IMG/VR virus record: IMGVR_UViG_3300029711_000004
Length of the DNA stretch: 64,000 nucleotides
Reading direction: 5' to 3' (one strand)
Source: a virus
Lineage: Duplodnaviria > Heunggongvirae > Uroviricota > Caudoviricetes
Shown: one piece after another, positions 8,594 through 64,000 of the stretch
How the letters are laid out: each line of letters begins with the position of its first letter
Numbering within the stretch: the first letter of the stretch is position 1
The notes under the pieces: model-generated
Told to the model about the DNA's origin: nothing
Databases searched by the model: none
Seen by the model: the letters and a program-made list of their open reading frames with translations, nothing else
Position numbers and translations under genes: made by a program

Positions 8594-8678
8594 TACATTG
8601 AAAAGGCATAGTTTGTGAAAGCGGGGTTTGTAGGCGCGCCACGCTGGGGGCTAATCACATTTCTCCCCCATCTTGCCG

Positions 8679-8930: not shown

Positions 8931-8962
8931 AAGAAACCTCCAGGAGTTAGTGGATCAGGCAC

Positions 8963-10572: not shown

Positions 10573-10578
10573 ATAAAT

Positions 10579-10872: not shown

Positions 10873-10879
10873 ACTTACC

Positions 10880-11002
10880 TCACTTAATAAAACAACTCCA
10901 TGCGTAGTTGATGATTTTTTCCCACGTAATATAAATCTGCACTCCGGCAGTAAAACCAAAGCCAACAATTGCTGAAAAAATCAAAACATTTACTTTTGAC
11001 AT
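10880..11002 (-). CDS. 40-aa hydrophobic peptide MSKVNVLIFSAIVGFGFTAGVQIYITWEKIINYAWSCFIK
   Basis: Hand translation; GAGAGA RBS-like upstream; stop coupled to next gene's RBS; absent from ORF track. Confidence 0.5.
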   Translation of the reverse strand: MSKVNVLIFSAIVGFGFTAGVQIYITWEKIINYAWSCFIK

Positions 11003-11050
11003 TATAAATTTTCTCTCGGTGTCGTAGGTGATAGCACCATAATTGATAAT

Positions 11051-11284
11051 TTAGTGAGTTAGCAGTTCCATTTTTTGGATGATTTCCGCATGAGCATCAT
11101 CGTTATCAACACTTAACTCGTTTAATGCCTCTCGCACTACATCAACTTCTTCTGGTTGGAAGAAGTCATCTCGGTAGTCACCAAATAGAACCGAAACAAG
11201 CCTGCCACCAGCAACATCAAGATTGGCGCTAACAGGTGGCTCTTTGCCATCCTCAAATTCGACTACAAAAGTTATTTTTCCCAT
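11051..11284 (-). CDS. Small strongly acidic protein (about 77 aa)
   Basis: ORF track; start moved to MGKITF ATG; D/E-rich. Confidence 0.5.
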   Translation of the reverse strand: MGKITFVVEFEDGKEPPVSANLDVAGGRLVSVLFGDYRDDFFQPEEVDVVREALNELSVDNDDAHAEIIQKMELLTH

Positions 11285-11366
11285 CGTTACCACCAGCGAC
11301 AAATTGAATACAAACCCAGTGCTGCCGCCATCACAATTCCTACCGTTGCGAATGCTTCAGGCCAGC

Positions 11367-12644
11367 TCATTGACCTGCCTCCTGGGGAGGTTCTGGTAGC
11401 AGCATCCAGAACAAGGCGTTCCCTAACCACGATAAAGTGCCGTCGCTCAACTCTACGTATTCCCCTTGCACCTGTCCTGCCATATACTCACCGTGCTTTG
11501 AATAAATTAAAATCCAATCATCTTGAGCGGGCATTCGCTCACTACAGCTTATCCAACCATCCGGAGTTACCGGAGAGTTGCCATTCACAAGGTCAGCTCG
11601 AACATATAGCGTGTCATCATGGTGCTGATTGTGGCTGCACCACGTTAATTCGCTTAACTCGCCATCTTCTGGCCATACTCCAGCCGTTTGCAGCCAGATA
11701 TGGGCTGGCGCATCTTGGCAAGGTGTATTAACTGGCAACTTGTAAGTTTGGCTTACAGGTTGGCTACCCTGAAGCATGGCAGCGTGGCAGGCATCCTCTA
11801 CGCCTTTAACTGCATCTGCGCAGTAGTTATAGCGATTGCATTCCACTAACTTCTGCTTGAGATTTTCAATTGCTTGCGCGACATCATCCTGTATTTCCGG
11901 AACTGGCGGAACGGCTGTCTGCTGCTCTCGAACGTTATTAGTCGCTATCGGTTCTGCTGCCAACTGACTGGCATATTTGTTAATGGTAACGATAAGCTCT
12001 TGCTCAGCCTCATCCAGACAATCACCGACACCTCGCCTGTCACCGTCAAAATCATCGAAATCGGCACGAACCCTGGCAACCTTCATAATTGCTGACAGCA
12101 CCTCACCTGGAATTACCGGAGAGTTGCCAGCCAGTCTACGCAAAACAGCCTTAACAGCCTCAATACGGTCATCATCAACTTTTTCTACAATATTGGAATT
12201 TAAATACTTCGAAGCCTTGCTATGCCAATCGCTGGTTTTAGGGTCTTGTCCATCCATCAAACGCCAAGCTTCAGCGATTAACTCATAGCCAGTAACAGTG
12301 GCTTCCTGCGCATCACCAATCAGTTGTGTGATCTCTCTTTCAAGCATGCTTAGAGCGTTAGGCATTGGTTTTTCTTCCGGTACTACTGGAACGGGTGGAG
12401 CGGCGTAGACCTCAATAATTCCATTATCAATAGGCCATTCTCCATCCTTGAGGTAGTCACTTGTGCCGTCAACTTGCTGTTCTGCAATGTGGAATGCACC
12501 TATTGGTTTTGCTTCCAGCGATGCCAGAGCAATCCGTGCCAGTTCTTCCGCTTCTTCTGCTGGCAGTACAACGTTGCTACCCGGTCCGTATGTTTCGCGC
12601 CACTGCTTGATTGTCAGCAGTCGCTCTTTGGTTATAGTAGTCAT
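11367..12644 (-). CDS. Hypothetical protein (425 aa) with C-terminal DUF551-like W/P-rich module
   Basis: ORF track; C-terminus ...WILIYSKHGEYMAGQ...WLGNALFWMLLPEPP. Confidence 0.6.
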   Translation of the reverse strand: MTTITKERLLTIKQWRETYGPGSNVVLPAEEAEELARIALASLEAKPIGAFHIAEQQVDGTSDYLKDGEWPIDNGIIEVYAAPPVPVVPEEKPMPNALSMLEREITQLIGDAQEATVTGYELIAEAWRLMDGQDPKTSDWHSKASKYLNSNIVEKVDDDRIEAVKAVLRRLAGNSPVIPGEVLSAIMKVARVRADFDDFDGDRRGVGDCLDEAEQELIVTINKYASQLAAEPIATNNVREQQTAVPPVPEIQDDVAQAIENLKQKLVECNRYNYCADAVKGVEDACHAAMLQGSQPVSQTYKLPVNTPCQDAPAHIWLQTAGVWPEDGELSELTWCSHNQHHDDTLYVRADLVNGNSPVTPDGWISCSERMPAQDDWILIYSKHGEYMAGQVQGEYVELSDGTLSWLGNALFWMLLPEPPQEAGQ

Positions 12645-12850
12645 TTGTTAATCCTCAAAACTTTATGCCCGGGCGCAAAAGCACGCGTTTTGTCTTTGCT
12701 TATTCGCCAGCCATCCTTGCGCGCCTCTTTTGCACAGCCAGCCCATGACGTACCTATATACTCACCGAAGTCTGGCGACTTATATTTGCCATCTGTACAT
12801 TGGAGGCAATCACAATAGAGATGCATGGTGTAACTTGCAGCGATAGCCAT
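12641..12850 (-). CDS. Small Cys-rich protein (about 69 aa)
   Basis: ORF track trimmed to MAIAASYT start, 1 nt after upstream stop; CDC..C motif. Confidence 0.5.
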   Translation of the reverse strand: MAIAASYTMHLYCDCLQCTDGKYKSPDFGEYIGTSWAGCAKEARKDGWRISKDKTRAFAPGHKVLRINK

Positions 12851-12851
12851 A

Positions 12852-13040
12852 TCACTCTCCTTTAGTGCGCAAGTGGTTTTTCCAGCGGTTTTGCGCCGCG
12901 CTGGGCTTTTTGCAAAAACCACAATCCATCATCCCGTAATATTTCATCAACCCCATCCGTCGGTTGCTGAGTCTCACCCACTGCCAGACGCCAGGAGCGT
13001 TTCTACGAACTAACAGAATCTTTGCTTTACGGTTTTTCAT
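12852..13040 (-). CDS. Small basic protein MKNRKAK... (62 aa), paralog of the upstream gene
   Basis: ORF track; ATGA overlap with upstream stop; shared N-terminus MKNRKAK. Confidence 0.5.
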   Translation of the reverse strand: MKNRKAKILLVRRNAPGVWQWVRLSNRRMGLMKYYGMMDCGFCKKPSAAQNRWKNHLRTKGE

Positions 13041-13213
13041 CTTACAGCGTACCCTTTCTTCCGCCTGTTCTGTGACGCAGTAGGCTTACGCTTTGCGGCA
13101 AAAGCCACCTGACCAAATGGATGGAGTACCGCTATCTTATGGTTGCTAATAACCAGCTCCACCACACGCACAGGTCGCTGTAAAAAAAGTCGTTTTGCCT
13201 TACGGTTTTTCAT
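13037..13213 (-). CDS. Small basic protein MKNRKAKRLFLQRPVRVVEL... (58 aa)
   Basis: Hand translation; start overlaps upstream stop (ATGA); absent from ORF track. Confidence 0.45.
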   Translation of the reverse strand: MKNRKAKRLFLQRPVRVVELVISNHKIAVLHPFGQVAFAAKRKPTASQNRRKKGYAVR

Positions 13214-13386
13214 CGCTTTGCTCTCCTGCGTCTCTTTGCTGCTCGTCGTGCCGCTGCAATACCGGTATGGCGGCGCTTTGGTGCCGGGATGATGTTGTCA
13301 GCCATCAGGACATACGGCTTTGCAATTAGCGCAGAAGCCCAAAAACGAGTCGGGTACGGTAACAAGCCGATACATGCCACACGCAT
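13210..13386 (-). CDS. Small protein with Arg/Lys-rich tail (58 aa)
   Basis: Hand translation MRVACIGLLPYPTRF...AKRRRRAKR; TAATG coupling to upstream 252-aa gene. Confidence 0.45.
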   Translation of the reverse strand: MRVACIGLLPYPTRFWASALIAKPYVLMADNIIPAPKRRHTGIAAARRAAKRRRRAKR

Positions 13387-14144
13387 TACTCACCTCCTTT
13401 GATGCGAATGCCTGCGGCGCGGATTGCATCGATGACTTCAGAAACTTTGTATGCCATTACCGTTTGGTAATCATCGTGAAAATCTGTTCGATGAAGCATG
13501 CTGCTACGTTCCGGGAGCGATATTTCCCGAGCATCCAGTTCCTTAACGCGTTCCTCCAGTTCGTAGACCCTGCATTGTTCTCTATCATCAATCAGATATA
13601 ACCCAAGACATTCGCTTTCTACCCAACCGCCAAAATCATGATCGTAACGCTCACATGAAAACTCACCGTCACCGTCCTTTGTTGGAATGGTGTAACTATC
13701 TAATGGGCCACCATATGTCGGCACATTTCCCAATGTTGGATGCTCAATCCACATGAAAAATGCACGTCCGGTTATTGGGCAAAGATCTGGCCGCCATTGG
13801 TTACGAACAGCCTTGGTTTCGGATAATTCTTCAGCGTGTTGTTTTACTTCCTCAAGCTCAACTCTCAGCTTCCCTACCGTTAGCGCAATATCCTCGTTCT
13901 CCTGGTCGCGGCGTTTTATGTATTGCTGGTTTCTTTCCCGTTCATCCAGTAGTGCCAGCACGGTTTCTGGTCCGGTCAGAAATTTGAAGGCGTTGAGCGC
14001 ATCAATATCCACACCGTAATCCTTAAGTTCCTGTTCAGTTAACAAATCATCATCAACTGGCAACATTAACAGGCGTTCCATTGCCGGAATTGCACGCTCT
14101 GCCGCCTCACGCAGTGCCTGATAGTCAATTGTCATTCTCGCCAT
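13386..14144 (-). CDS. Hypothetical phage protein (252 aa)
   Basis: ORF track; operon context. Confidence 0.6.
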   Translation of the reverse strand: MARMTIDYQALREAAERAIPAMERLLMLPVDDDLLTEQELKDYGVDIDALNAFKFLTGPETVLALLDERERNQQYIKRRDQENEDIALTVGKLRVELEEVKQHAEELSETKAVRNQWRPDLCPITGRAFFMWIEHPTLGNVPTYGGPLDSYTIPTKDGDGEFSCERYDHDFGGWVESECLGLYLIDDREQCRVYELEERVKELDAREISLPERSSMLHRTDFHDDYQTVMAYKVSEVIDAIRAAGIRIKGGE

Positions 14145-14776
14145 CCTTCACAGTTGTAATCACTACAGCCTTCAAAATCATATGGGCTGTACTGCCATGT
14201 TATTTTTCCGCAATGCGGACAATTCCAACGCACCTTCCCGCTTCGCGACTTCTTTCTTCTGTTCTGCTCTTTCAACCAGTCAGGCATGACCAAACCTGCG
14301 CCCTGAACCATTGTTCTGCGGTTAAAGTTATTGATATTGAACGTCCGACGCTTTGCTGCATCAGCAATGGAAAATGGCAACCAAACTATTCCTGGTTCGT
14401 TTTTGTTGGCGACGCTAAAGATGGTCGCTTTACTGAAGTCATCTGTTGGCAATCCACCGTGTTGAAGCCAGTAAACATCGTTGCCGTTCCAGCTACCTTT
14501 TTTGTAGGCCACATACGCAGTGCAATCTGACTCAATCAGGCTTTCTGTGGGGATGTACTGGCAATCAACGTGCCACACAGCCATTGCATCCACGCTATCA
14601 GCGCAAACAGGCTGATCGATATCTCGTCCACAATTCCAGGCTTTTTGGGCTTCTTCCAGCGTGTAAACATGAGCGCGATCGATATCAGAACTGTAACCAT
14701 TGCCGTTATGGCAATGGAATGAGGCGTTATTACCCACAGTTTCACGCAAGCACATCATGTAAAAGCGGTTATTCAC
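14132..14776 (-). CDS. Hypothetical Cys-rich protein (214 aa)
   Basis: ORF track; CPHCGK zinc-ribbon-like motif. Confidence 0.55.
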   Translation of the reverse strand: MNNRFYMMCLRETVGNNASFHCHNGNGYSSDIDRAHVYTLEEAQKAWNCGRDIDQPVCADSVDAMAVWHVDCQYIPTESLIESDCTAYVAYKKGSWNGNDVYWLQHGGLPTDDFSKATIFSVANKNEPGIVWLPFSIADAAKRRTFNINNFNRRTMVQGAGLVMPDWLKEQNRRKKSRSGKVRWNCPHCGKITWQYSPYDFEGCSDYNCEGWRE

Positions 14777-15053
14777 TGGTTGCCTCCGCTTCCCACGTTT
14801 TCAGACTTTCACCACAGAACGGGCAAAATGAAACTCGAATAGGCGATTTAGAAAATTCACCAGACCGCAGCATGATCAGGTCTTGTGAATGAATTAATTC
14901 ATGGTTATAGATTTTGTATTTCAGCAGACCTTTTCGCGTCGTGTATTCAGCGTCATGCTCCAGGGATTGTGCCAACGCCGCGCACGGTTCTATCTTGTTG
15001 CCATTAATTTGGCATTTTGACTCACTCACTGGTTGCCCCCTGAATACGCTCAA
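14769..15053 (-). CDS. Hypothetical protein (94 aa) with C-terminal CPFCG zinc-ribbon-like motif
   Basis: ORF track. Confidence 0.5.
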   Translation of the reverse strand: MSVFRGQPVSESKCQINGNKIEPCAALAQSLEHDAEYTTRKGLLKYKIYNHELIHSQDLIMLRSGEFSKSPIRVSFCPFCGESLKTWEAEATSE

Positions 15054-15603
15054 ACTCTATTACCCACACCCAAGGATTAGCGTTCCAACTATCTTCGCCA
15101 TAAATTGATTTCCATAGGCTACGGAAACCTGGGTAATGCTTATCGCCAATGAGGGTCGATTCTGTTGGTGCGCCCTCAGCCCTTGCATCGCATTCGCTGA
15201 TATCGTTCAACCGCTCAACGCGCACGTTGGTAATTTCCAGAAGAATGCGCGATGCCCAGCGCGGCATGTGAATTGATGGCGTCCACTTTTCTGATACTGG
15301 TTTATTACAAACCTCGACCGGAACCCGGTGCGTTTGTTCTGTCCAGGAGTTACGCACGCTTGCGCGATAAACCAGCGTTGCGACGTCCGTCGCTTTGCCA
15401 TGTACCCGGTAGGTTTCGCGAACCCAAATACGATCGCCCGGTTGACCATATGGACAATGCTTGGCAAGCAACTCTGCGGCCACTGCCCGTCCATAGAATT
15501 TTTCTTCAACAATCCTGCGAGTCTGTGTTTTATTCCCGCCAAGAATTGCCCGGACCATCTCATCGTTAAAAATCATGCCGCGCTCTTTCACTTCGCCTTT
15601 CAT
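15022..15603 (-). CDS. Hypothetical protein (193 aa), possible ASCH/PUA-like fold
   Basis: MIFNDEMVRAILGGNKTQTRR N-terminus; coupled to upstream leader peptide. Confidence 0.6.
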   Translation of the reverse strand: MKGEVKERGMIFNDEMVRAILGGNKTQTRRIVEEKFYGRAVAAELLAKHCPYGQPGDRIWVRETYRVHGKATDVATLVYRASVRNSWTEQTHRVPVEVCNKPVSEKWTPSIHMPRWASRILLEITNVRVERLNDISECDARAEGAPTESTLIGDKHYPGFRSLWKSIYGEDSWNANPWVWVIEFERIQGATSE

Positions 15604-31501: not shown

Positions 31502-33756
31502 ATCGCCATAACGTCATGAGCAACACCACGAGTGTCTCCCTTACAAGACACAGAACGTCTGGCAAAGAGAGGTTCCACTCTGAAGCCACTGTCCTGATAA
31601 AGTTCTCTGACGTTTGGCGCGCCACTGTTAGTAATGAGTACCTTTGCACCTCGGCGATGAGCATCCGTCAACAGAGACACCAGGCGTTTTTGCTCTTCAA
31701 ACTTAAAGTCATGACCGGAATAGTTCGTGAACCCCTCTGTATTGGGGAGCGGTTCATACGGCGGATCGCAAAAGATGACATCTCCTTCTCCGGCAGCTTC
31801 AATCACTGCTGCAAAATCACCGCATACAAACTCAGACCGCCCTTCCGCACCGAGGAAGGCTTCCATCTCCTGTAATGGGAAATACGGAGTTTTATACTTC
31901 CCATAACCGACATTGAACTCACCGGCCTGGTTGTAACGCGTCAATCCGTTAAAACAATGTCGGTTCAGGAACAAAAACGCCGCTGCGCGATGTAAATCAT
32001 CATAGACTTGTTTGTTAAACGCATTCCGTACTGCCAGGTATCCTTCCTGTGTGTTGTAGTCCTGGAAGAAACGATGTGCCAGAGTGATAAGTGAATGCGC
32101 CTCGCGTTGCAGAGTCTTGTAAAAGTTAATCAGGTCAGCATTCACATCATTTAGCAGATTTTCCTGGTATCCGGCATTCATGAAGACAGCTCCGCCACCA
32201 ACGAAAGGTTCAATCAGGCGCTTCCCTTCTGGCAAATAGCGAAAGATTTGTTCCAGAACACCAAATTTTCCACCAGCCCATTTGAATATGGACCGTTCGA
32301 ATTCTGCCGCTGGTTTAACTTTTCGCTCTTTTGTTTCACTTCCTTCTTTCTGCCGACATACGGCCTTAGTAATCCGATCGCCAATCCAGCGCATTACTGG
32401 TATTGCCATACTATTGCCGATCGCTTTGTAACGCGGTCCGTCAGCTGCAAGCATCGCGGCCTCTTCTTCGCTTAAATCTGGATAGTGATTGCGAAGATAT
32501 GCCAGTTCATCTGAATTAACTTTTTTACGCTTTTCCGTCGGGATCAACGTATGCCCATCAGGAAAACCTTGCAGCCTTTCACATTCGACAGGGGTAAGAC
32601 GGCGGACAGCTACTTCTGCGTTTCTTACTTCATAGCAAACAGCTGTTGGATTTTTAGCCATTAGAGATGGTGAAGTATTCTTAGTTGCAGCATGTTGTGT
32701 ACCGCTCATACGCTCAGGAAAAGCCAATGTAACAAGATGCTCATGGCTTTCTTGCTCACGTGCCCGCAATGTACCATGCCCTTCTGACCAAAAACCTGCT
32801 CCTGTGCTGCTAAAAACGGCAAGGTCAGTGGCATCTTTAAAATCTCTTGCCTTTACTGTCGATGCGGTTTCATCGTCAATATATTCCCCAAATGCTGCCA
32901 TCCTGAAAGCGTTTACGGCTTTCGTCGATTTCATACCGGGTGGCATGTCAGCGTGTAGGCATGGATTTAGGCTTTCGCCACTGATTGCAGCGCCATTTGC
33001 AATAATGGCGGAAGCGATTTCCTTCTTTTTTCGGCTCGGCGCAATATCCCGGCGCACGCCTTCGAACTCAAAAAGTACCGTTGCGGGATCGAGGTCTGTT
33101 CGAGCACTTGCGACAACAAACACGCGTCGGCGTCGTTGTGCCACTCCGAAGTATTGGGCATCAAGGATTCTCCAGGCCACCTTTCGCTGCGGTCCATAAA
33201 TACAACCACACTGCGGCCACTTTGGAGCATGGCAACCGGTTTTGCCATCCCACCGCCAGAACGCGTTACTTTTTCCTGATTCAGGTCGATCACCTGGTTC
33301 AAATGGCGCATCTTCTCCAGCCAATCCGGCAAGGAAACATCCGAAGGCGTTATCTGCCGATGACAGGACTCCTGGGACATTTTCCCAGACGATAACTGTC
33401 GGTTTGAGAAATGACTCAGCCCGTTTGTCGTCAATTGCATTTGCAAGCTCCACATACTTTAAAGTTAGCGCGCCACGCTCATCATCAAGCCCACCACGTA
33501 ATCCAGCGATACTGAATGCCTGACAAGGTGTTCCCCCGACGAGCACATCAGGGGATTCGATTTCCCCAGCCAGGACTTTTTTGGCAAGTTTTGTCATGTC
33601 GCCAAGGTTGGCGACATGGGGCCAGCGGTGCGCAAGAACGGCAGATGGAAAAGGCTCGATTTCAGCAAACCACGCCGGACGCATACCCAACGGTTCCCAG
33701 GCAATACTCGCGGCTTCAATTCCACTGCAAACAGATCCATAGCACAGCTCTTTCAC
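31492..33756 (-). CDS. dmt: Dmt bifunctional DNA methyltransferase (754 aa): N-terminal C5-cytosine, C-terminal Dam-like N6-adenine
   Basis: [12 protein letters not shown] and ENV motifs, then FKWAGGK and DPPY motifs. Confidence 0.9.
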
Positions 33757-37259: not shown

Positions 37260-37520
37260 TTATCCACATTATCCACTGGATAGATCCAATAATCAGGTCC
37301 ATACAGATCCCAATTAGATCCATATAGATCCCTGATCGTTGCAGGCCGCGCCACGTCTGGCTTAGAAGTGTATCGCGATGTGTGCTGGAGGGAAAACGAT
37401 GTGTGCTGGAGGGATAAAAATGTGTGCTGACGGGTTGCTAATGTGTGCTGGCGGGATATAGGATGTGTGCTGACGGGAAAGCCTGGGTAGTTATCACCAC
37501 TTATAAAAACTATCCACACA
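37260..37520. other. oriR: Plasmid origin oriR: DnaA boxes, five GATC sites, incC iterons
   Basis: TTATCCACA x2 at 37260-37277; GATC at 37283-37337; DnaA box near 37511. Confidence 0.85.
37377..37481 (+). repeat. incC: incC: five 19-bp RepA-binding iterons
   Basis: GATGTGTGCTGGAGGGAAA and variants, 21-bp spacing. Confidence 0.9.
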
Positions 37521-37536
37521 ATTCGGAAAAAGTAAT

Positions 37537-38397
37537 ATGAATCAATCATTTATCTCCGATATTCTTTACGCAGACATTGAAAGTAAGGCAAAAGAACTAA
37601 CAGTTAATTCAAACAACACTGTCCAGCCTGTAGCGTTGATGCGCTTGGGGGTATTCGTTCCGAAGCCATCAAAGAGCAAAGGAGAAAGTAAAGAGATTGA
37701 TGCCACCAAAGCGTTTTCCCAGCTGGAGATAGCTAAAGCCGAGGGTTACGATGATATTAAAATCACCGGTCCTCGACTCGATATGGATACTGATTTCAAA
37801 ACGTGGATCGGTGTCATCTACGCGTTCAGCAAATACGGCTTGTCCTCAAACACCATCCAGTTATCGTTTCAGGAATTCGCTAAAGCCTGTGGTTTCCCCT
37901 CAAAACGTCTGGATGCGAAACTGCGTTTAACCATTCATGAATCACTTGGACGCTTGCGTAACAAGGGTATCGCTTTTAAGCGCGGAAAAGATGCTAAAGG
38001 CGGCTATCAGACTGGTCTGCTGAAGGTCGGGCGTTTTGATGCTGACCTTGATCTGATAGAGCTGGAGGCTGATTCGAAGCTGTGGGAGTTGTTCCAGCTT
38101 GATTATCGCGTTCTGTTGCAACACCACGCCTTGCGTGCCCTTCCCAAGAAAGAAGCTGCACAAGCCATTTACACTTTCATCGAAAGCCTTCCGCAGAACC
38201 CGTTGCCGCTATCGTTCGCGCGAATCCGTGAGCGCCTGGCTTTGCAGTCAGCTGTTGGCGAGCAAAACCGTATCATTAAGAAAGCGATAGAACAGCTTAA
38301 AACAATCGGCTATCTCGACTGTTCAATTGAGAAGAAAGGCCGGGAAAGTTTTGTAATCGTCCATTCTCGCAATCCAAAGCTGAAACTCCCCGAATAA
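37537..38397 (+). CDS. repA: RepA plasmid replication initiator (286 aa)
   Basis: 286-aa ORF flanked by incC and incA iterons. Confidence 0.9.
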   Translation: MNQSFISDILYADIESKAKELTVNSNNTVQPVALMRLGVFVPKPSKSKGESKEIDATKAFSQLEIAKAEGYDDIKITGPRLDMDTDFKTWIGVIYAFSKYGLSSNTIQLSFQEFAKACGFPSKRLDAKLRLTIHESLGRLRNKGIAFKRGKDAKGGYQTGLLKVGRFDADLDLIELEADSKLWELFQLDYRVLLQHHALRALPKKEAAQAIYTFIESLPQNPLPLSFARIRERLALQSAVGEQNRIIKKAIEQLKTIGYLDCSIEKKGRESFVIVHSRNPKLKLPE

Positions 38398-38404
38398 GTG
38401 TGTG

Positions 38405-38682
38405 CTGGAGGGCAGCTGCATTCAAAAAATGTGTGCTGCCGGGAAGGCTTGTCCAGTTTCCCGTTTTTGATGTGCGCTGGAGGGGGACGCCCCGCAGTTT
38501 GCTCAGACTTTCCCTCCAGCACACATCTGTCCATCCGTTTTTCCCTCCAGTGCACATGTAATTCTCTGTCTTTCCCTCCAGTACACATATTTGATACCAG
38601 CGATCCCTCCACAGCACATAATTCAATGCGACTTCCCTCTATCGCACATCTTAGACTTTTATTCTCCCTCCAGCACACATCG
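38405..38682. repeat. incA: incA: nine iterons, three direct then six inverted
   Basis: GTGTGCTGGAGGG then CCCTCCAGCACACAT copies. Confidence 0.9.
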
Positions 38683-38954
38683 AAGCTGCCGGGCAAGCCG
38701 TTCTCACCAGTTGATAGAGAGTGAAGCCTGGCTGCCCGTTGAAGCAGGAAATCACCAAAATGATTCAGGCTACAACCTGAACATAGAAGAAATCCGCGTC
38801 CTTTATACGTGGAGGATGCCAAAGCATGTTGTGGCACACTTGGCAAAGGAGTAAACATGCAGAGAATGCTATGTACAAGCATCTACGCATACATTATTAT
38901 TTTATGCAGCATTTTTAATTAAATTCAAAAATACAGCATAAAGGATGACTTTCG

Positions 38955-48338: not shown

Positions 48339-49139
48339 TTAGCGCGTTGCCGCGACAGGTACCAGCACACCAGCATCAAGCAATCGCTTCATCAGCCACT
48401 GCTGACCTTTGCCGGTTATACGAGTCGTGAAAGAAATCCTGCTTCCATTGCTTGTATCGATCACGGTTTCTTTAAGGGTGAAATACCCACGGGATATGTA
48501 TTCTTGTTTGGGGACGTTTCTGCGTTCACCGGTTGCGATCAGAATTCCGTTATCACGCAACCAGGTGAAGAGATAGTTTTGGCCCAGGCCGAGCACTTTG
48601 GCATAGTTGCCGATTAGAACCCCGCTGGCGGTAGCAACGCGTTCGGCGAATTCGACTTTAGGTGCATCCATCAGCATTTTTTGCTCCAGCCGTTGCTTTT
48701 GCTCTGCCAGGTCAGCAGCCAAACGGAGAGCTTCTGGGAGGCTCTTCGGAATAGCAGGTTGTAATCTTCCAGCTCGATAGTCGATAAATGTCTGGTTTAC
48801 CTTCAGCCGAAACGCGGGAGAAATCCAACCAGCGTACTCCACTGCGAGCAATTCATGGGCAAAAGTGCCGCCGCCACGGCCTTCGAACGAAACTATGCAA
48901 TTCTGCATAGTTTCTTTTTCAAGCTCTTCGATGAGCTGTTTGGCTGACAGCGTTCTTAGCCATTGAGCTGGCGCTTTATGGGCACCGAGTCCGCTCGCTC
49001 TGTGTAGAGCATTAAGGTTATAACGGCCAGCGCGGTCGGTCGTAATTTCAACACCACAAATAACAGGCAGGGTGGTTGAAGGATCGACATTTTGATGAAG
49101 GTTTGATATATTCATATCCGCATTGAATGTTTGTTGCAT
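48339..49139 (-). CDS. kilA: KilA (266 aa): KilA-N domain plus antirepressor-type C-terminal domain
   Basis: C-terminal region paralogous to Ant C-terminus; operator upstream. Confidence 0.8.
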   Translation of the reverse strand: MQQTFNADMNISNLHQNVDPSTTLPVICGVEITTDRAGRYNLNALHRASGLGAHKAPAQWLRTLSAKQLIEELEKETMQNCIVSFEGRGGGTFAHELLAVEYAGWISPAFRLKVNQTFIDYRAGRLQPAIPKSLPEALRLAADLAEQKQRLEQKMLMDAPKVEFAERVATASGVLIGNYAKVLGLGQNYLFTWLRDNGILIATGERRNVPKQEYISRGYFTLKETVIDTSNGSRISFTTRITGKGQQWLMKRLLDAGVLVPVAATR

Positions 49140-49208
49140 TTTTTCTCCAAATTTGCATCAACCTTCAATCACCAGCTCGAAATGGTGATTCTTTGCACTT
49201 AGAAAACG

Positions 49209-49225
49209 AAATTTATTAGAGCAAA
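49209..49225 (-). promoter_or_regulatory. C1 operator (Op53-type) controlling kilA-repL
   Basis: AAATTTATTAGAGCAAa, 16/17. Confidence 0.75.
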
Positions 49226-49259
49226 TTTTTCTAACTCGATCCAGATCGGGTTGGTCGAT

Positions 49260-49975
49260 CTGCTCAGAAACCTGCCAGTTTGCTGGCAGGTTTTTTTGTG
49301 CACAGAAAACCCCCAGCTAGGCTGGGGGTTCCGGAAAGCTTTCAGCTTTAAGCCAGTTATTAAAACCCCTTTTGATTTGTTAAAACACCTTGCGGTCTGG
49401 CAACTGCAAGTGTCAAACAAGAAATCAAAAGGGGGTCCCAATGGGGAACGAAAAGAGCTTAGCGCACACCCGATGGAACTGTAAATATCACATAGTATTT
49501 GCGCCAAAATACCGAAGACAGGTGTTCTACAGAGAGAAGCGTAGAGCAATAGGCAGTATTTTGAGAAAGCTGTGTGAGTGGAAAAGTGTACGGATTCTGG
49601 AAGCTGAATGCTGTGCAGATCATATCCATATGCTTGTGGAGATCCCGCCCAAAATGAGCGTATCCGGCTTTATGGGATATCTGAAAGGGAAAAGCAGTCT
49701 GATGCTTTACGAGCAGTTTGGTGATTTGAAATTCAAATACAGGAACAGGGAGTTCTGGTGCAGAGGGTACTACGTCGATACGGTGGGTAAGAACACGGCG
49801 AAGATACAGGATTACATAAAGCACCAGCTTGAAGAGGATAAAATGGGAGAGCAGTTATCGATTCCCTATCCGGGCAGCCCGTTTACGGGCCGTAAGTAAC
49901 GAAGTTGGATGCAAATGTCAGATCGTGTGCGCCTGTTAGGGCGCGGCTGGTAAGAGAGCCTTATAGGCGCATTTG
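49260..49975 (+). mobile_element. IS200 insertion sequence (IS200/IS605 family); ends approximate within about 30 bp
   Basis: IS200-type TnpA ORF preceded by terminator hairpin and a second hairpin; subterminal hairpins at right end. Confidence 0.8.
49441..49899 (+). CDS. tnpA: IS200 transposase TnpA (HUH Y1), 152 aa
   Basis: MGNEKSLAHTRWNCKYHIVFAPKYRRQVFY...HIHMLVEIPPKMS... Confidence 0.92.
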   Translation: MGNEKSLAHTRWNCKYHIVFAPKYRRQVFYREKRRAIGSILRKLCEWKSVRILEAECCADHIHMLVEIPPKMSVSGFMGYLKGKSSLMLYEQFGDLKFKYRNREFWCRGYYVDTVGKNTAKIQDYIKHQLEEDKMGEQLSIPYPGSPFTGRK

Positions 49976-49999
49976 AAAAACCTCCGGCTATGCCGGAGG
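49975..49999 (-). terminator. Rho-independent terminator after ant
   Basis: cctccggc-atag-ccggagg hairpin then TTTTTC on minus strand; could instead belong to IS200 right end. Confidence 0.55.
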
Positions 50000-50015
50000 A
50001 TATTTATTTCTTTTG

Positions 50016-51059
50016 TTAACCTATTGCTACTGGTTTTAACAAACCAGCATCAAGTAGCTTGCGAGTTAACCACTGCTGGCCTTTACCCGTTAATTGGGGC
50101 GTCAGCCGTATCTGGTAGCCATTTTCATCATCCAGCACCACTTCTTTCACCGTGAAATACCCGGCGTTAATGTACTGCTGGCGCGGTACGTTTTTGCGCG
50201 CACCAAAAGCCATGAGAATGCCGTTCTGGCGCAACCATGAGAAAAGGGCGTTTTGCTTAAGTCCAACGACCTTTGCAAAGTTCCCGATCAGGATTCCATT
50301 GGCCACTGATACCCGGTCGGCAAAATCGACTTTAGGGGCTGCGGCCACCAGCTGTTGTTCCAGCTGCATTTTCTGTTCTGCCAACTCGGCAGCCAGGCGT
50401 AGAGCTTCTGGTAATGTTTGGGGGATCGATGGGGCAGGGGAGTTTGCCTGCTGCAATTCTTCCAGTTTGTCGATCAGCGAACGGCGGACGGCTTTTGATT
50501 CGCGTGCGGCGACTCGCAGGGCTTGTTTGTAGGTCATGGTTATGACAACCATAGGCGTACCGCCACCTGGCGGCACGGTTGCACTTTTTGTGTAACCGTC
50601 CTCACCTTCTAATTCGTCGAGTATTTTTTCGATGAATTTGTTGTTCCGAACCTCTGGTTCCCCACATAACTTACGCGCTTCATTGACCATCTTTAACAGT
50701 GTCAGGCTGTCGATTGTGTCTCCGGTGTTGGGGATGATATTCACGGCTGGTGCTGGCGTAGCTGACGTAACAGGTGCTGTTTTTTCAACATTCAAATTAT
50801 TACCGGTCATTCTATGTGCCTCCTTTCTCATTTCTGCTGCCACTGTTGCGTAACGTAGACGTCCTTGTTCAATCAAATAATCCCTGATCTCGGCTATCAG
50901 TAGCTTGTTGATCACAGCCTTATCTGTTCGGGTATAAAAACGTCTGGTTATCATGAAATAGTTGGCAATTGCGCCGGGGATCTCCCGTGTCGGCATACAG
51001 GCAGTGTGCAGGGCGATCGCTTCGGCTATGTCATTACGGGTGACGAGAGGTTTTTTCAT
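50016..51059 (-). CDS. ant1: Antirepressor Ant (immI), 347 aa
   Basis: C-terminal domain paralogous to KilA C-terminus; coupled to icd. Confidence 0.8.
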   Translation of the reverse strand: MKKPLVTRNDIAEAIALHTACMPTREIPGAIANYFMITRRFYTRTDKAVINKLLIAEIRDYLIEQGRLRYATVAAEMRKEAHRMTGNNLNVEKTAPVTSATPAPAVNIIPNTGDTIDSLTLLKMVNEARKLCGEPEVRNNKFIEKILDELEGEDGYTKSATVPPGGGTPMVVITMTYKQALRVAARESKAVRRSLIDKLEELQQANSPAPSIPQTLPEALRLAAELAEQKMQLEQQLVAAAPKVDFADRVSVANGILIGNFAKVVGLKQNALFSWLRQNGILMAFGARKNVPRQQYINAGYFTVKEVVLDDENGYQIRLTPQLTGKGQQWLTRKLLDAGLLKPVAIG

Positions 51060-51299: not shown

Positions 51300-51570
51300 T
51301 TAACAACCTGCTACCCGCTGTCAAACAGGTGGCAGGACGTGACAGGGTTGACAGACTGGCGATTGTGAAACCAGCAGGCCGAAGCCTCCCCATCACGCCC
51401 CACCATAATTTGGGCGTAACGCGGTTTAACGGACACAAAAATACCGCAATATCGGAAATCTGCGGTTGTCCGCACAATCATTCAGGCTGTCAAACCTGGT
51501 CGCAGAATTTGCTACGACGGCGGAACTATAAGCCTGAACGATTAAAAGGTCAATATGATGCGAAAAGATA
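51300..51570 (-). ncRNA. c4: Region expected to encode the c4 antisense RNA; boundaries not determined
   Basis: Position between Op51 and icd; non-coding structured sequence. Confidence 0.35.
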
Positions 51571-51591: not shown

Positions 51592-51608
51592 AAATTTATT
51601 AGAGCATT
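51592..51608 (-). promoter_or_regulatory. C1 operator (Op51-type) at immI
   Basis: AAATTTATTAGAGCAtT, 16/17. Confidence 0.75.
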
Positions 51609-51704
51609 GTTTGTTTAATAAATGCACAATTGGATCTAATAACCTCTTTTTTTTAAAGGCGAAAATATGTACCCTAAATGAGTTATAAGGCAGGTGAGGT
51701 TATA

Positions 51705-52196
51705 ATGAGAAAACTATTACTACCGTTATTATTTATGGCTGGGACTGTTAATGCAGCATCAAGCGTAAAGGAGATTTGTACCGATTATACGAAATACCTT
51801 GGGCACGTTTACGGATTTGCTGTCAGTGAAGACGAATCCATGCGCAAGAAGTTACTGTCAGATATGAAGCGCCTTAAACTTTCTGAAGCGATGGTGCAGC
51901 AGGAACTGTATAAAGTCTCAACCAACGCAAATGCTAAATACCAATATTCTCGCCTATTAAACCCCGATGCAAATGAGATCAATCGAAGCACTTTCGATTA
52001 TATGGTAAAGGCATGCGAAACCGCTCCTGATTTTGCTATCCCTAGCTGGGGTGTGCTGGTGGCGAGCAATGCCGTTAATAAAGAAGATGTTGGAAGAAAT
52101 GGCATTGACTCAATCAGAAATGCCCCAGGAATGCGCCATCAAAACGTGCAGGGTACGCTTGAAGAACGAGCCAGGGGGCCGGGTGTAGCTCCATAA
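51705..52196 (+). CDS. Secreted protein (163 aa) whose C-terminal 30 aa match a Sit motif
   Basis: MRKLLLPLLFMAGTVNAASS signal peptide; GGTGAGG RBS; C-terminus GMRHQNVQGTLEERARGPG. Confidence 0.7.
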   Translation: MRKLLLPLLFMAGTVNAASSVKEICTDYTKYLGHVYGFAVSEDESMRKKLLSDMKRLKLSEAMVQQELYKVSTNANAKYQYSRLLNPDANEINRSTFDYMVKACETAPDFAIPSWGVLVASNAVNKEDVGRNGIDSIRNAPGMRHQNVQGTLEERARGPGVAP

Positions 52197-52284
52197 TTTA
52201 ATGAATAATATTAAATTCTCTGGGCATAGTGGATCTAACAATATGGACTATGCCTATAATATCTAAAACAAAAAGGATAAAAAT

Positions 52285-52791
52285 ATGAAATTATATAAGT
52301 CATTGTATAGCTTTTTATTAATGTCCTCTTTTCTGCCATTATCAGCAATGGCAGGTTCTACCGTTTGGACGGTAGGAGGTGAGCAAGGGTGGAGAGAAAT
52401 CTCTGCAACCAATGACGATGGTTATACAATTAACTTTTCTTGTGATGCTGGAGCAAGGGAAGGTTCAGAAGATCATATCGCTGGAAGAAATTTGTATGTA
52501 AGCGGAGGAAAAGAGAATGCCGATTTTTCTACACGCGACACAATATCACGTAAAGCAGATGTAATTACTTTAATTGTTGGCCCGGATAGTTTTAATATTG
52601 GCACGCAAAACACTGCTCCTAATCGTAGGGAATGGTATTCATTTTGGAAGGCAGTGTCATCTACAAATGAAAAAAACATAGATGTATATATCGGTTCGAG
52701 TCGAATCACATCATTCACTCTGGATGGTATTTCCAGTATTTATACAGAAGCTAAAAATGACGGGTGTTTAAAACAAGATGACGGTGAATAA
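52285..52791 (+). CDS. Secreted protein (168 aa)
   Basis: MKLYKSLYSFLLMSSFLPLSAMAGS signal peptide; AAGGA RBS; TATAAT upstream. Confidence 0.7.
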   Translation: MKLYKSLYSFLLMSSFLPLSAMAGSTVWTVGGEQGWREISATNDDGYTINFSCDAGAREGSEDHIAGRNLYVSGGKENADFSTRDTISRKADVITLIVGPDSFNIGTQNTAPNRREWYSFWKAVSSTNEKNIDVYIGSSRITSFTLDGISSIYTEAKNDGCLKQDDGE

Positions 52792-53851
52792 AGTGAAGGA
52801 TATTAAACACATTTCGCTTAACTCTAATAATAAAGCTGAAGGCACTGTCTTTTATGATTATTTAAATGAAATTAAAGGAGTGAGGCATAAAAAGATAAGT
52901 GGTTTATTAAATTCAGAATATATTTACAAGAGTTTAGTTAAACAGTTTGGAACAGTTAAAAAACAAGAATTAATTAATGATTGTTTTCGAAAAGAACTTG
53001 AGTCTTTACCAAAAGTTACGAGAATTGCACACCAGTTTCGTGAACAAATGGTATTTTTACAGAAACAGTATCAGGCGGCTTTTCCCAGTGATGCAAATGA
53101 GCATATTCAAATAATTAAAAATCAAGCTGAAATGGCTATGCCGTTACGAAAAAACTCAGAAGCCATTAATAAGATAGCTGGCTTAAATAATATGGAGGAG
53201 GTATTTAAAGAATTACACTCTAATATAAATTACAAAATTAAGATAAGCAAAGATATTAAAGAAATAATAAAGCAGTATAATAAAACAAGAAGTGTATTAT
53301 TAGAGCAAGTAGTAGAGCTTGGGCTTGTTACTATCGCGCAGGCTTATGCTAATGATTCTATAAAATCAGCGCATACCGAAAGTGAGCATCAAAACAAAGG
53401 ATTTAATAAATCTAGTTCGACGTTTTTTGATTCATTTAAGGCGCTTCCTTCTCCTATTCAGATCTTCCTTCTGTGGATTTTTTATCAAGTGGTGCTTGGC
53501 GCTATAACTGATTATGCAAAAGAAAAGACATTATCGCAAATTTACAAGATGGAATCATATCTTCTATCTCTAAATGAGGATAAGCCAATATCTAAGCAAA
53601 AGCTAACACAAGAAAATAAAGATATTCAGTGGGAGGATCTTAATAATTTTAGAGCTATAACAGGTGATAACGTAAGGTTGCATGTCGGCCCTTCTTTAAA
53701 TAGTGAAGTGATTGAATGCATTGGCAAAAACACAATTGTTGCTATTTTAGATAAGAAAGATCGTCAATGGCTTTACGTGCAGGTTAAATCAGGGGATGAG
53801 TTTATTACTGGTTGGATTACACGAACATACACAAAGCCTCTTAAGGCTTGA
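52778..53851 (+). CDS. Membrane-anchored protein (357 aa) with C-terminal SH3b-like domain
   Basis: K/N-rich; hydrophobic helix IQIFLLWIFYQVVLGAI; C-terminus NVRLHVGPSLNSEVIECIGKNTIVAILDKKDRQWLYVQVKSGDEFITGWI. Confidence 0.7.
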   Translation: MTVNKVKDIKHISLNSNNKAEGTVFYDYLNEIKGVRHKKISGLLNSEYIYKSLVKQFGTVKKQELINDCFRKELESLPKVTRIAHQFREQMVFLQKQYQAAFPSDANEHIQIIKNQAEMAMPLRKNSEAINKIAGLNNMEEVFKELHSNINYKIKISKDIKEIIKQYNKTRSVLLEQVVELGLVTIAQAYANDSIKSAHTESEHQNKGFNKSSSTFFDSFKALPSPIQIFLLWIFYQVVLGAITDYAKEKTLSQIYKMESYLLSLNEDKPISKQKLTQENKDIQWEDLNNFRAITGDNVRLHVGPSLNSEVIECIGKNTIVAILDKKDRQWLYVQVKSGDEFITGWITRTYTKPLKA

Positions 53852-53965
53852 ATTTTATCTCCGCATCTTCGGATTGGGTGTTGATGACGATGTGCTACTT
53901 GAAGCACTTGAGTTGTTTTAACGTAGTATCTGAAATGTGTAGACTGACCGGTAACAAATGACAAC

Positions 53966-56171: not shown

Positions 56172-59100
56172 ATGGAAAGAAAAAACGCCAATATTGACGA
56201 TGTTATAAGGACAGTTGAAACCGCCAGCGCAAAAGAGCTGGAAGAGCTTGCAGGTATCCGGGAAGCTGTTGAAGATTTGAAAGGGGGACGCGTTGCAACT
56301 GTTGATCCTGTCTCTCACAGTGTGTCGGCATTAAATCGCACAATCGAAAATTCCAGGCCAGACTTTGTGGCCAATGCGCCATCAGTGGCCCCTATTGTTG
56401 AGGCAATGAAACGGCTTAATTTAGGGGACGTTTCTCGTGTAGTTCAGGAGGATGTTGCTCTACAGGAACCGCAGGCCAAATCAACTACGCGAAAGGGTAA
56501 AAAACGACGCAAGAAGGCTATAACAGAAGATGTAAAGGCGCAACGGACCGAAGCAGCCGAACACGCTCGCGAAATGTTCGGTCAAAAAGGCGGTGCGCAA
56601 AAAAGCCAAAACCAACGCGATGCGCGTGGTCGTTTTATTGGAAAGCCAGGGAGTAAGGCCGCAGCGGAAGATGCCCGTGCTGAACGTGCTGAAAAGGCCA
56701 GGCGCAAAGAGGATGATGAGCGTCTAAATGCTGAATCAGGTTTATTAAAAAAACTGTCAAAAGTAGCTGAAGGCATAGGTAACCCTTCAGAGACTCGCGC
56801 CGTCGATGCGTTAGGTTATGCCGTTGCTGGTCCATTGTGGGCCGCAGGGAAGGAGCTTGGCGGGATATCAAAAGAAGTTGGTGGATCGCTTAATGGTGCC
56901 AGAAAGTCTATTGCCGATGTGATTCGTGGCAATGACGATAACAGCCGTAGAAAAGGTTTTTTTAGGCGTAAATCGCAAAATAGTGCCGATGTCGTTCAGG
57001 TTAACACCCAAAAACGGACGGTTCAGGAACTTCAGGATCAGACCAGCGAAATTAAAGAGGGCAATGACAAGATTCTCAGCGCCCTTGATCAGATAGCCAA
57101 AAACACCGGGAAAAAGAAGGGCGGCTTGCTGTCCAAATTATTTAGCCTGTTAGGGAAGGGGGCCGGTGGCGTCGCGTCGTTGTTAATGGGGCGTGGCATG
57201 CTGAAAAAAGCTGGAGCACTCGCTTTTGGCGCTCTGGGGGCAAAGAAACTTGTAGGAATGCTACGCGGTGGTGGCAAGAAGACTCTCGCCCATGAAGGCG
57301 GAGATTTGGCTGCCCGGGCAGCAGGTAAACTTGGATTAAAGGCAGTTGGTAAAGGGGCGTTACGCGCAATTCCCCTAGTCGGCACAGTGGCTGGAGGTAT
57401 TTATGATGCGGTAACCGGTTGGAATGATACAGAAGCGCAACGTCGAGCGTTTGGGCTTAAATCAGGACAAGATCCATCATTCCAGCAAAAAGCCGCTTAT
57501 ACGTTAGCCAATGTTCTTGATTTGGGGGGACTGGTATCTGGTATTAGCAGTGCTATTGGTGATGTTCTCAAATCACTTGGATTTGAGGATATCGGCAATA
57601 TGTTGCAATCATTTTCGACGGAAAGTATTGCCCAGGCCATTGATAGTGGGATTACCAACTTAGAAACATATATTTCTAACCTTGGCGACACCATTTCTAC
57701 CAAGTTCGATGATTACACAGCAAAGATTGGTGATGCTGTTTCAGCATGGTTTAGCGATACATCTAATAAGCTGCTTGAAAAGCTGGATGCCATCAAAGAC
57801 TTCTTTACTGTCGATAACCTGAAACAGGTTTTCAGTGATGCAATTGATAGTGCAATTGATTTCATTAAGAACCCAGGGAAACACATTAAAGAGGCAGCTA
57901 GTAATATTTGGGATGGGGTTAAAAATTTACCAGGTAAAGCATTAGATGCAGCGGTTGATGCCGTTAAAAATACCCCTGCGGCAATGATTGTATCAAAAAC
58001 ACCCAATCCGATCGGCGAGGCTAATGCGAAAGAAATCACTCCAGAGTTAAAAGCTCCGGTTAATAGCCAGCAGGGGACATCTGATTCTAAAGCTGAATCC
58101 GATGCCAAACAGACTAATATTGCTGCCCGCGTGATAAATGCGGCCCTGGATATGGCGAAAGATAGCAATAAAACAGTTAAAGAAACTGCTAATCAGATTA
58201 TCAATGCAAATGCCGTAGAAACAGGAAATAAAGCAGCACAAACAATTGATGCTGCCTTGGGCCAGTCTGCTACAGGTAAGGAGGAAGCATTAAGTGCATA
58301 TGAGATAGATAAACGTCGATTTAACAATGGCAAGGATGTTTCTTTGCCAAAATTAAATGCTGCCGGATACCAATGGATTTCTGACAATGCCGATTATTTT
58401 GATGAGCTTGAACGTAAGTATGGGCTTGAAAAAGGGATTCTGTCAGCAGTTGCATCCGCAGAGTCTAGTGCAGGCCAGAGAACTGGAAATCCAGTAGACA
58501 AAAACGGGAACAAACTTTCATCTGCCCTTGGGGCTTTTCAGATCACTAAAGGTACAAGGGAGGATCTTGGACTCAGCGATGCTGATGCCATGGATACACG
58601 AAAAGCAGCTGATGGTGCCGCCAGATACCTAAGTATGCTGATGAACCGTTATAACGGTGATCAGGGTCGTGCAATAGCTGCCTATCATGCTGGTATGGGG
58701 CATGTTGATAAGGGGAGAGTAGTCGCCGGTACCGGCGAATATGTTACTCGTGTCAGAGGTTATCAGCGGATGCTCAATAATGGTGCCGTTTATGGCTCTA
58801 AGGTAGATCATAGCGCACCAGCAATTCACGAAAAGATACCTGATAACGCTGTTATCGATCAGTCTACTGGCCTGGCGTTTACCCCTGGTGATAGCCCGTT
58901 TGAGAAAGGCGGTCTGGTAGACAAAATTGGCAATGCTGTTGGTGTTAACGATCTGGTCAACAAATTCATGAATGGCCGGGGTATGCGTCGGGAAGTCGTT
59001 CAGGGAACGCTCGAAGAACGTGCACGAGGGAAGGGGACCGCAACAGCAGCTGGCAATGTGTATGTTGATACTCCGATGCCAGTTGAAGAGGCGCGTCCGG

Positions 59101-62692: not shown

Positions 62693-64000
62693 ATGAATGA
62701 CGTTACAGTTGTTACATCGGTTACTTACCCATCACCCGAGTCGTTGGCTCTGGTGGCTGATGTGCAATACCACGAACCATATCTGTCAGCCGCTCTAAAC
62801 CGAAAATTCAGGGGAATTGTTGACCCGGGATTTTATGCTGGTTTCTTGCCTAAGCCTGGCGGTGGGATGAACCTGTTAATCACCTCAGTGGATGGAGATA
62901 AAACCGCTGGCGCGGCGTCAGTGGATATTGGTGAATTCTACCAGGTAACTATTCAGCATCGTAAGGATATCTCTCTTGCACTTAACGCAGGCAAGAAATA
63001 TGCAATTGTGCTGAAGGGAAGATACCTTCTTGGAGAAGATACCTATCAGGTGAATACCGCGTCACATATTCATGCAGCTGAATTTGTTGCCAGAACCTAT
63101 ACCGATTCATATCAGTTAGGTGATGGGGAACTGCTGGTTTGTACGGTGAATATCCCTGCTGGCGTATCTACCATTACTCAAGAGATGATTGATACATCCG
63201 AGCGTATCAACCGCACGATCGGCATTGATATTTCAGACTCTGTAACCAGTACCAGAAGTGATGTTGCTGCGAGTTCGCTGGCAGTTAAAAAAGCCTACGA
63301 TCTGGCGAAAAGCAAGTATACGGCGCAGGATGCAAGCACAACGCAAAAGGGATTAGTTCAGCTCAGTAGTGCCACTAACAGTACGTCCGAAGTGCTGGCC
63401 GCCACACCGAAAGCTGTCAAGGCTGCATATGACCTGGCTAACGGGAAGTATACAGCCCAGGATGCAACCACGACACAAAAAGGGATAGTTCAGCTCAGTA
63501 GCGACACCAACAGCACTTCTGAAACATTAGCTGCAACGCCAAAAGCGGTTAAAGCTGCATACGATCTAGCAGCCGGAAAGGCACCATCCAGTCATACACA
63601 TCCCTGGAATCAGATCACTGGTGTGCCAACAGCTTCATTGACAGCGAAAGGCATCACTCAGCTCAGTAGTGCCACTAACAGCACGTCTGAAGTGCTGGCC
63701 GCTACACCGAAAGCTGTCAAGGCTGCATATGATTTGGCTAATGGAAAGCAAGCGGCAGACGCTACGCTCACTGCTCTAGCGGCACTAGCTACCGCAGCAG
63801 ATAAACTCCCTTATTTCACAGGGGTTGATCGTGCCGCGTTAACTGCACTGACAAGTGTTGGACGTGCAATTCTTAGTAAGCCCAGTATTCAGAGCGTTCT
63901 TAATTACCTTGGTTTGGGGGAAGGCTCTGCACTGCCTGTTGGTGTGCCCGTTCCGTGGCCCTTAGAAACACCACCAACGGGGTGGCTGAAATGTAACGGA
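62693..64000 (+). CDS. S: Tail fibre protein S, constant N-terminal part; runs off the right edge
   Basis: ATG at 62693 with AAGGA RBS; open to window end; three TQKG(L/I)VQLSS.TNSTSE.LAATPKAVKAAYDLA repeats. Confidence 0.75.
   Translation, partial: MNDVTVVTSVTYPSPESLALVADVQYHEPYLSAALNRKFRGIVDPGFYAGFLPKPGGGMNLLITSVDGDKTAGAASVDIGEFYQVTIQHRKDISLALNAGKKYAIVLKGRYLLGEDTYQVNTASHIHAAEFVARTYTDSYQLGDGELLVCTVNIPAGVSTITQEMIDTSERINRTIGIDISDSVTSTRSDVAASSLAVKKAYDLAKSKYTAQDASTTQKGLVQLSSATNSTSEVLAATPKAVKAAYDLANGKYTAQDATTTQKGIVQLSSDTNSTSETLAATPKAVKAAYDLAAGKAPSSHTHPWNQITGVPTASLTAKGITQLSSATNSTSEVLAATPKAVKAAYDLANGKQAADATLTALAALATAADKLPYFTGVDRAALTALTSVGRAILSKPSIQSVLNYLGLGEGSALPVGVPVPWPLETPPTGWLKCNG
63318..63745 (+). 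repeat. Intragenic tandem repeats in tail fibre gene
   Basis: Three nucleotide copies coding the LSS.TNSTSE.LAATPKAVKAAYDLA repeat. Confidence 0.8.

Follow-up and report, generated by a model that had tools for sequence, protein, structure and literature searches.

The window, by which we mean the whole stretch of 64,000 nt that was analyzed, contains the immI and lytic-replicon region of a P1-like prophage plasmid, which is read on the minus strand. The gene order is that of the P1 type (Punavirus), namely c4 RNA, icd, ant1/2, Op53/P53, kilA, and repL, and the locus is 96–99% identical to P1 records. Rfam searches placed the C4 antisense RNA at 51325–51410, together with its a1/b1 targets (c4-a1b1). 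The antirepressor gene ant1/ant2 occupies 50016–51059 on the minus strand and is intact, encoding a protein of 347 aa with a Pfam ANT/KilAC domain; kilA, also on the minus strand (48339–49139) and intact in the window, encodes 266 aa with a KilA-N plus an ANT domain, and in P1 the next gene is repL. When the P1 annotation was transferred by alignment, the C1 operator Op53/OrepL fell at 49209–49225 and the promoter PkilA/P53 at 49215–49243, both on the minus strand; the operator and both promoter hexamers were identical to those of P1.

Across most of the 64 kb the window is collinear with the P1-like genome MH422554, a close relative, with several unmatched segments intervening. No megablast match to that record was obtained for 8604–15547 (patchy), 29168–30341, 32605–33033, 37354–38852, 58231–58838, and 63382–64000; in these stretches the P1-like backbone appears to be mosaic or variable, and one of them lies near the plasmid replication/partition region. 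The segment next to immI, 51607–53953, also had no match to MH422554. It contains three plus-strand ORFs of 172, 168, and 357 aa, for which Pfam gave weak matches only (PTPlike_phytase, below the cut-off, and SH3_3), and it resembles a variable cargo region.

The only hairpin found between ant and kilA on the minus strand of P1 corresponds to positions 49268–49297 of the window. Written on the plus strand, it reads AAACCTGCCAG-TTTG-CTGGCAGGTTT followed by seven T residues, and it is the target of the IS200C element described below. Its GC-rich stem of 8 bp, which can be extended to 11 bp and is followed by the T7 run, folds with −22.7 kcal/mol on the plus strand (z = −4.6) and −18.8 kcal/mol on the minus strand, and the hairpin was present in all of the empty sites examined (P1, MH422554, and the mip270_04 plasmid). 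Our consensus terminator scan did not list this hairpin, probably because extension of the stem by G-T and A-T pairs uses up the T run, and we folded it directly instead. The start of PaskilA/P53as annotated in P1 corresponds to window position 49120, about 175 nt upstream of the native T run, and the scan placed the P53as promoter at 49084–49112. Heinrich et al. (1995) reportedly put the P53as RNA at about 180 nt, a length that the native hairpin, at about 175 nt from the start, would fit; a literature search on P53as found no paper with that term. From its predicted folding on both strands, the native hairpin is likely to be a bidirectional terminator, ending the PaskilA/P53as transcript on the plus strand and serving as the ant terminator on the minus strand, the direction in which its U tail is weak.

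Between ant and kilA there is one plus-strand ORF, at 49441–49899, which encodes a protein of 152 aa. This protein, TnpA, matched the Pfam family Y1_Tnp (3.8e-38) and the NCBIfam equivalog transpos_IS200 (1.9e-43; 147.7 bits against a cut-off of 55), and it has the motifs of a Y1 HUH transposase, with the HUH motif at H61-I-H63 and the tyrosine at position 125; Y125F is the catalytically dead mutant of IS200 TnpA (PMC4513863). Its sequence relatives with solved structures were 2ec2 and the IS608 TnpA, 2a6m (3.9e-19). TnpA has 100% identity to WP_000526135.1, a protein listed in RefSeq as "IS200/IS605-like element IS200C family transposase", and the name IS200C is used here on the basis of identity to copies with this RefSeq-named TnpA. 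Among the protein families tested, tnpA gave the sole match in the insert and no tnpB was found; a second copy of IS200 was not found within the 64-kb window. An earlier sequence-only reading of this DNA had recognized here a complete IS200-type element with an HUH transposase, and these matches bear that out.

The ends of the element were fixed by alignment to empty sites. At this place P1 (NC_005856) and MH422554 read CTGCCAGTTTGCTGGCAGGTTTTTTT followed directly by CTTTTGTTAACC; the window agrees with them fully on either side, and its extra DNA, positions 49298–50009, lies between these two sequences. Relative to this empty site with its seven T residues, the insert is 712 bp long. When window positions 48900–49297 were joined to 50010–50400, the resulting 789 nt matched the E. 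coli mip270_04 plasmid in one piece and with 100% identity; that is, the empty site is regained by plain removal of the insert, and there is no target duplication. IS200C begins with GTGCACAG and ends with ATATTTATT, without terminal inverted repeats. A right-end consensus from about 40 copies plus two tandem pairs stopped at GGAGGATATTTATT, which is window position 50008, and the next base varied. The T at 50009 therefore cannot be assigned to element or flank, and we give the element as 49298–50008 on the plus strand, 711 bp, with the T at 50009 ambiguous. An IS of 711 bp would imply a parental run of eight T residues, whereas the sequenced empty sites carry seven, and T runs make the junction ambiguous by 1–3 nt. 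An independent copy in the lambdoid phage PhiR63_2, which differs at 6 of 712 positions, shares the sequence from GTGCACAG through GGAGGATATTTATT(T) and nothing beyond it.

These boundaries differ from the interval 49260–49975 given in the sequence-only reading, which lay about 35 bp too far to the left of the 49298–50008/50009 obtained from the empty-site alignments. The first 38 nt of that interval are native P1 sequence, hairpin 49268–49297 included, and the last 33–34 nt of the true element, including hairpin 49981–49999, are outside it. We considered hairpin 49268–49297 as a possible part of the IS and rejected it, since P1, which lacks the IS, has it too, and the sequences of the upstream hairpins differ at every insertion site. 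The "ant terminator" that had been placed to the right of the element was presumably hairpin 49981–49999, which is the only hairpin to the right of 49975; it is in fact the right end of the IS. The element does lie between ant and the kilA/repL control region, as had been stated, but its neighbors are the ant stop codon and the native terminator rather than a terminator and the operator. The right end of the IS is 6 nt away from the stop codon of ant (50016–50018), and its left end is 54 nt away from the −35 box of P53 (49238–49243). The ends and the empty site, whose recovery had been proposed as a check, were thus both recovered, with TnpA assigned to IS200 and not to a different IS200/IS605 member. 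We concluded that 49298–50008/9 is, by its sequence, a single intact IS200C, which is the IS200 isoform of E. coli; its intact ORF, its intact ends, and its identity to other copies suggest that it may be able to transpose.

The internal structures of the element agreed with those published for IS200. At the left end, the perfect palindrome AACCCCCAGC-TAG-GCTGGGGGTT (49308–49330, plus strand) folds with −19 kcal/mol on the plus strand and −22 kcal/mol on the minus strand. Taking 49298 as nt 1, it corresponds to nts 12–34 of IS200, which are published as a bidirectional terminator (PMC4513863) that reportedly stops approximately 85% of upstream transcripts (PMC5435999). The same hairpin is presumed to be the one bound by TnpA, and a conserved GAAAA lies directly 5′ of it. 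Farther in, the stem-loop that sequesters the SD (49366–49435, plus strand) folds with −37.2 kcal/mol (z = −5.2) and corresponds to nts 69–138 of IS200 (PMC4513863). Because the published landmarks, nts 12–34 and 69–138, coincide exactly with the predicted structures, they support the placement of nt 1 at 49298. Rfam STnc490 (RF01405) matched 49308–49431 with 146 bits (gathering score 56) and covers the SD-sequestering stem-loop. A terminator hairpin at the left end and a stem-loop occluding the RBS had both been predicted from the letters of the sequence, and both predictions held. The RF01405 match reached 146 bits on the tnpA-sense strand of 49308–49431 and only 23 bits on the antisense strand; as STnc490/art200 is described in the literature as antisense to the tnpA 5′ UTR, the strand of the Rfam hit is no guide to which RNA is made.

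At the right end, the hairpin CCTCCGGC-TAT-GCCGGAGG (49981–49999, plus strand) is followed by the tail ATATTTATT, which runs to the end of the IS; it folds with about −16 kcal/mol and was kept in all copies examined. The terminator scan listed it on both strands, and read on the minus strand it is a hairpin followed by TTTTT and the first terminator-like site after ant. The stems at the two ends are alike (CCCCCAGC/GCTGGGGG at the left against CCTCCGGC/GCCGGAGG at the right); GAAAAA lies directly 5′ of the right-end hairpin, and the right end finishes in TTATT.

Of 5426 complete E. coli genomes, 3099 gave matches to IS200C, the median among these being two places per genome, and E. coli chromosomes contain 712-bp copies that are 100% identical to the one in the window. 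A copy from Salmonella houtenae was 91.3% identical, copies with the left end GTCTATGG were 90–93.5% identical, and those of Yersinia pestis, whose left end is GTGCCCAG, were about 87% identical. The suggestion that the element hints at a host lineage therefore survives as a weak marker only, and it is one for Escherichia, not Salmonella: the IS200C isoform points weakly to passage through Escherichia, since near-identical P1-like backbones also occur in Salmonella.

At the locus itself the insertion was rare. None of the P1-like phage records searched had the insert, two plasmids in PLSDB had it, and only 2 of the approximately 504 E. coli genomes with the locus have IS200C at the native terminator. 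Six E. coli genomes gave a match in three pieces, and in both of those inspected the IS was inside kilA. The best IS-bearing E. coli plasmid was 99.1% identical to the window over 1.5 kb. In the complete plasmid pMB18359_2 of E. coli 405, the junctions were as in the window, TnpA was identical, and the IS differed by 1 SNP; the backbone differed from that of the window by 16 mismatches across the 900 nt left of the IS and 68 across the 900 nt right of it, so that the two are different plasmids. The identical junction and the single SNP make it probable that this insertion and that in the window are the same event. In Escherichia albertii p2RM9973, the IS lies 3–4 nt farther to the right in the same T tract, with GGTTTTTTCTT before the IS and TGTTAACC after it, and has 7 SNPs; the shifted junction and the SNPs together indicate an independent event. 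A plasmid of ETEC1701 has nine T residues at the junction, compared with seven in the window and the empty sites, and 5 SNPs in the IS; the nine-T junction could stem from homopolymer variation, slippage, or a sequencing error. We concluded from comparison of these junctions that the native ant/kilA terminator has been hit at least twice independently in P1-like plasmids. The element is a known one, and RefSeq already contains an insertion that is essentially identical; a literature search found no paper linking IS200 with P1-like plasmids.

Other P1-like plasmids (loci L007, L008, and L063 of our collection) carry IS200C between the positions that correspond to 48919 and 48920 of the window; this is inside kilA, and the gene is split. 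The target in this case is the hairpin GAAACTATGCA-ATTC-TGCATAGTTTC followed by TTTTT (48889–48919), which was identified by the terminator scan and by folding. It lies on the plus strand, antisense to kilA, and is unoccupied in the window. Strand and orientation of the insertion are the same as at the native terminator, and the copy in the lambdoid phage PhiR63_2 likewise lies directly after a hairpin and a T-run.

This arrangement proved to be almost universal among IS200-group elements. Left ends were collected from IMG/VR contigs and GTDB genomes with the left-end hairpin sequence alone as the search pattern, which gave 156 distinct left flanks, distinct by 40-nt identity only, so that certain orthologous sites enter the count repeatedly. 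A strict criterion, requiring a perfectly paired stem of 5 bp or more and a T-rich tail ending exactly at the IS, was satisfied by 106 of the 156 left flanks, compared with 0.68% of positions taken at random and 6.9% of those chosen to match in having a T-run; a relaxed thermodynamic criterion was satisfied by 145 of 156 (93%), compared with 1.9% of random positions. No inward-pointing terminator was found in the right flanks by the strict criterion (0/38). The 40 nt upstream of the IS had a median fold energy of −18.1 kcal/mol; random 40-mers from the same loci had −6.4 kcal/mol. The last five nucleotides of the flank were TTTTT, TTATT, TTGTT, or TTCTT at 110 of the 156 sites, and the tail from stem to junction was 2–10 nt long, most commonly 6. 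Left-end variants differed at nts 3–8, and GAAAA 5′ of the hairpin was kept in nearly all of them, the hairpin itself being fixed by the search pattern. At two loci (L052 and L175) there were head-to-tail tandem copies in which the right end, ATATTTATT, was joined directly to the GT of the next copy; at L052 the two left-end matches were 710 nt apart. The right end closely resembles the targets; BLAST ran the P1 alignment about 30 nt into it, and the tandem copies are consistent with the right end as a mimic of the target.

For IS608 it is known that guides located 5′ of the hairpins recognize, by base pairing, both the tetranucleotide target and the cleavage site at the right end, that a change of guide retargets the element, and that members of the family choose tetra- or pentanucleotide targets by base pairing (PMC5934647, PMC5027513). 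By analogy, the GAAAA 5′ of both end hairpins of IS200C would act as a guide that pairs with a T-rich single-stranded target. On balance, and with a confidence only a little above an even chance, we propose that IS200-group TnpA actively selects terminator-like targets consisting of a hairpin, a spacing of about 2–10 nt, and TT-N-TT on single-stranded DNA, with GAAAA as guide, and that the right end mimics such a target, giving rise to tandem copies. In the IS608 model both of the hairpin-binding sites of TnpA are taken by the transposon ends, and a role for a target hairpin is not accounted for by that model. The plus-strand target in the window would be the lagging-strand template for rightward forks from oriR/oriL, which would be consistent with the known bias of the family. 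A literature search, with older IS200 papers outside its scope, found no mechanistic account of a terminator preference of IS200.

The enrichment of hairpins and T-runs could also have arisen purely from selection after random insertion by a TnpA with no target preference. A 2026 survey found an excess of terminator-like sequences directly upstream of ISs, with the strongest effect in IS200/IS605, and read this enrichment as a way of limiting transposase expression (PMC13548323), a reading that, like the intergenic and harmless nature of post-terminator sites, favors such selection. We nevertheless consider this explanation unlikely. The T-run stops exactly at the first nucleotide of the IS and always on the left-end side, with none in the 38 right flanks; one of the target hairpins is antisense within the kilA coding sequence, where insertion disrupts the gene; tandem copies use the right end, a hairpin with a T-rich tail, as their target; and base pairing is the means by which other members of the family pick their targets of four or five nucleotides. 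The precision of the junction to a single nucleotide, its strict orientation, and the hits in kilA, which disrupt the gene, argue for target choice rather than selection alone. Selection after insertion for harmless, transcriptionally quiet sites could still add to the enrichment.

With regard to the window, we hold it to be very probable that the IS200C copy was inserted after the native terminator by its own target preference, and that it is most likely a neutral passenger. Elements of the IS200 group would insert in one orientation, directly 3′ of a hairpin with a T-rich tail ending in TT-N-TT, and IS200C would accordingly have landed directly after the native T-run, 6 nt downstream of the ant stop codon and on the ant side of the native terminator, its position being the outcome of the element's own target choice. 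The right-end hairpin would then be a new terminator-like site for ant, replacing the displaced native one; transcripts of ant would meet the right-end hairpin with its UUUUU about 20 nt past the stop codon, then the left-end terminator, and then the native hairpin. P53as RNA would still end at its own terminator, and three structures would shield tnpA, namely the native terminator, the terminator in the element's own left end, and the stem-loop that sequesters the SD. As no coding sequence, promoter, or operator is disrupted, we infer that the element is a neutral passenger; the intact sequences on either side suggest neither activation nor disruption of ant, kilA, or repL.

An adaptive role for the insertion would be that the IS terminators insulate kilA-repL from ant read-through, or alter the 3′ end of the ant mRNA, and thereby stabilize the lysogen. 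There are now three terminator-like hairpins for minus-strand ant transcripts (the right end, 49999–49981, followed by T5; the left end, followed by T4; and the native hairpin), the native hairpin has a weak U tail toward kilA-repL, and at least two independent lineages carry the IS at this intergenic site. However, the native hairpin is unchanged and occurs in all empty sites examined; since it is still intact, insulation of kilA-repL, which had been suggested from the sequence and remains plausible as such, would be redundant, and no sign of a regulatory gain was seen. That the insertion is rare, with 2 cases among about 504 E. coli loci, argues against a selected function, its recurrence is expected from a target rule that is true at 93% of unrelated sites, and in other plasmids insertions disrupt kilA. 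An adaptive origin is therefore, in our judgement, quite improbable. It is extremely doubtful that the element arose as an artefact of assembly, or that it is defective or some other member of IS200/IS605; although IS copies often break or confuse assemblies, and many of the contigs collected here ended inside the IS, its junctions recur in pMB18359_2 of E. coli 405, an independent and complete plasmid, the ORF is intact, both ends are complete, and the DNA is 100% identical to that of chromosomal IS200C copies.

A neutral insertion guided by target preference has little consequence for the window itself, as it involves a known IS in a harmless intergenic position. The corrected boundary is useful for annotation, because the hairpin adjacent to ant belongs to the IS, and the insertion has moved the native terminator 712 bp away from ant. 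If the target preference is real, it would explain the intergenic, low-damage distribution of IS200, and the terminators of phages and plasmids, for example the ant/P53as terminator and the hairpin within kilA, would be predictable safe-harbor hot spots.

The likeness of this element to the Salmonella enterica IS200 (707 bp; Lam and Roth; Beuzon and Casadesus; Ellis and Haniford) is one of architecture: both have the terminator at nts 12–34, the stem-loop at nts 69–138, art200/STnc490, and a 152-aa TnpA with Y125. They differ in the first 8 nt of the left end, which are GTCTATGG in the S. enterica type and GTGCACAG in the window. The IS200-type copies of Yersinia pestis have the same end hairpins, the same GAAAA, and the same hairpin-plus-T-run flanks as the copy in the window; we take these copies to be IS1541. 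IS608 of Helicobacter pylori is alike in its Y1 HUH TnpA, its subterminal hairpins, the lack of a duplication, and insertion 3′ of a short target; unlike IS200C, it carries tnpB, has imperfect palindromes, and uses the target TTAC, and no requirement for a hairpin in its target has been described. Group IIC introns are also mobile and home to sites just downstream of intrinsic terminator hairpins; they are retroelements that read the stem-loop via RNA, and in mechanism and sequence they are unrelated to IS200.
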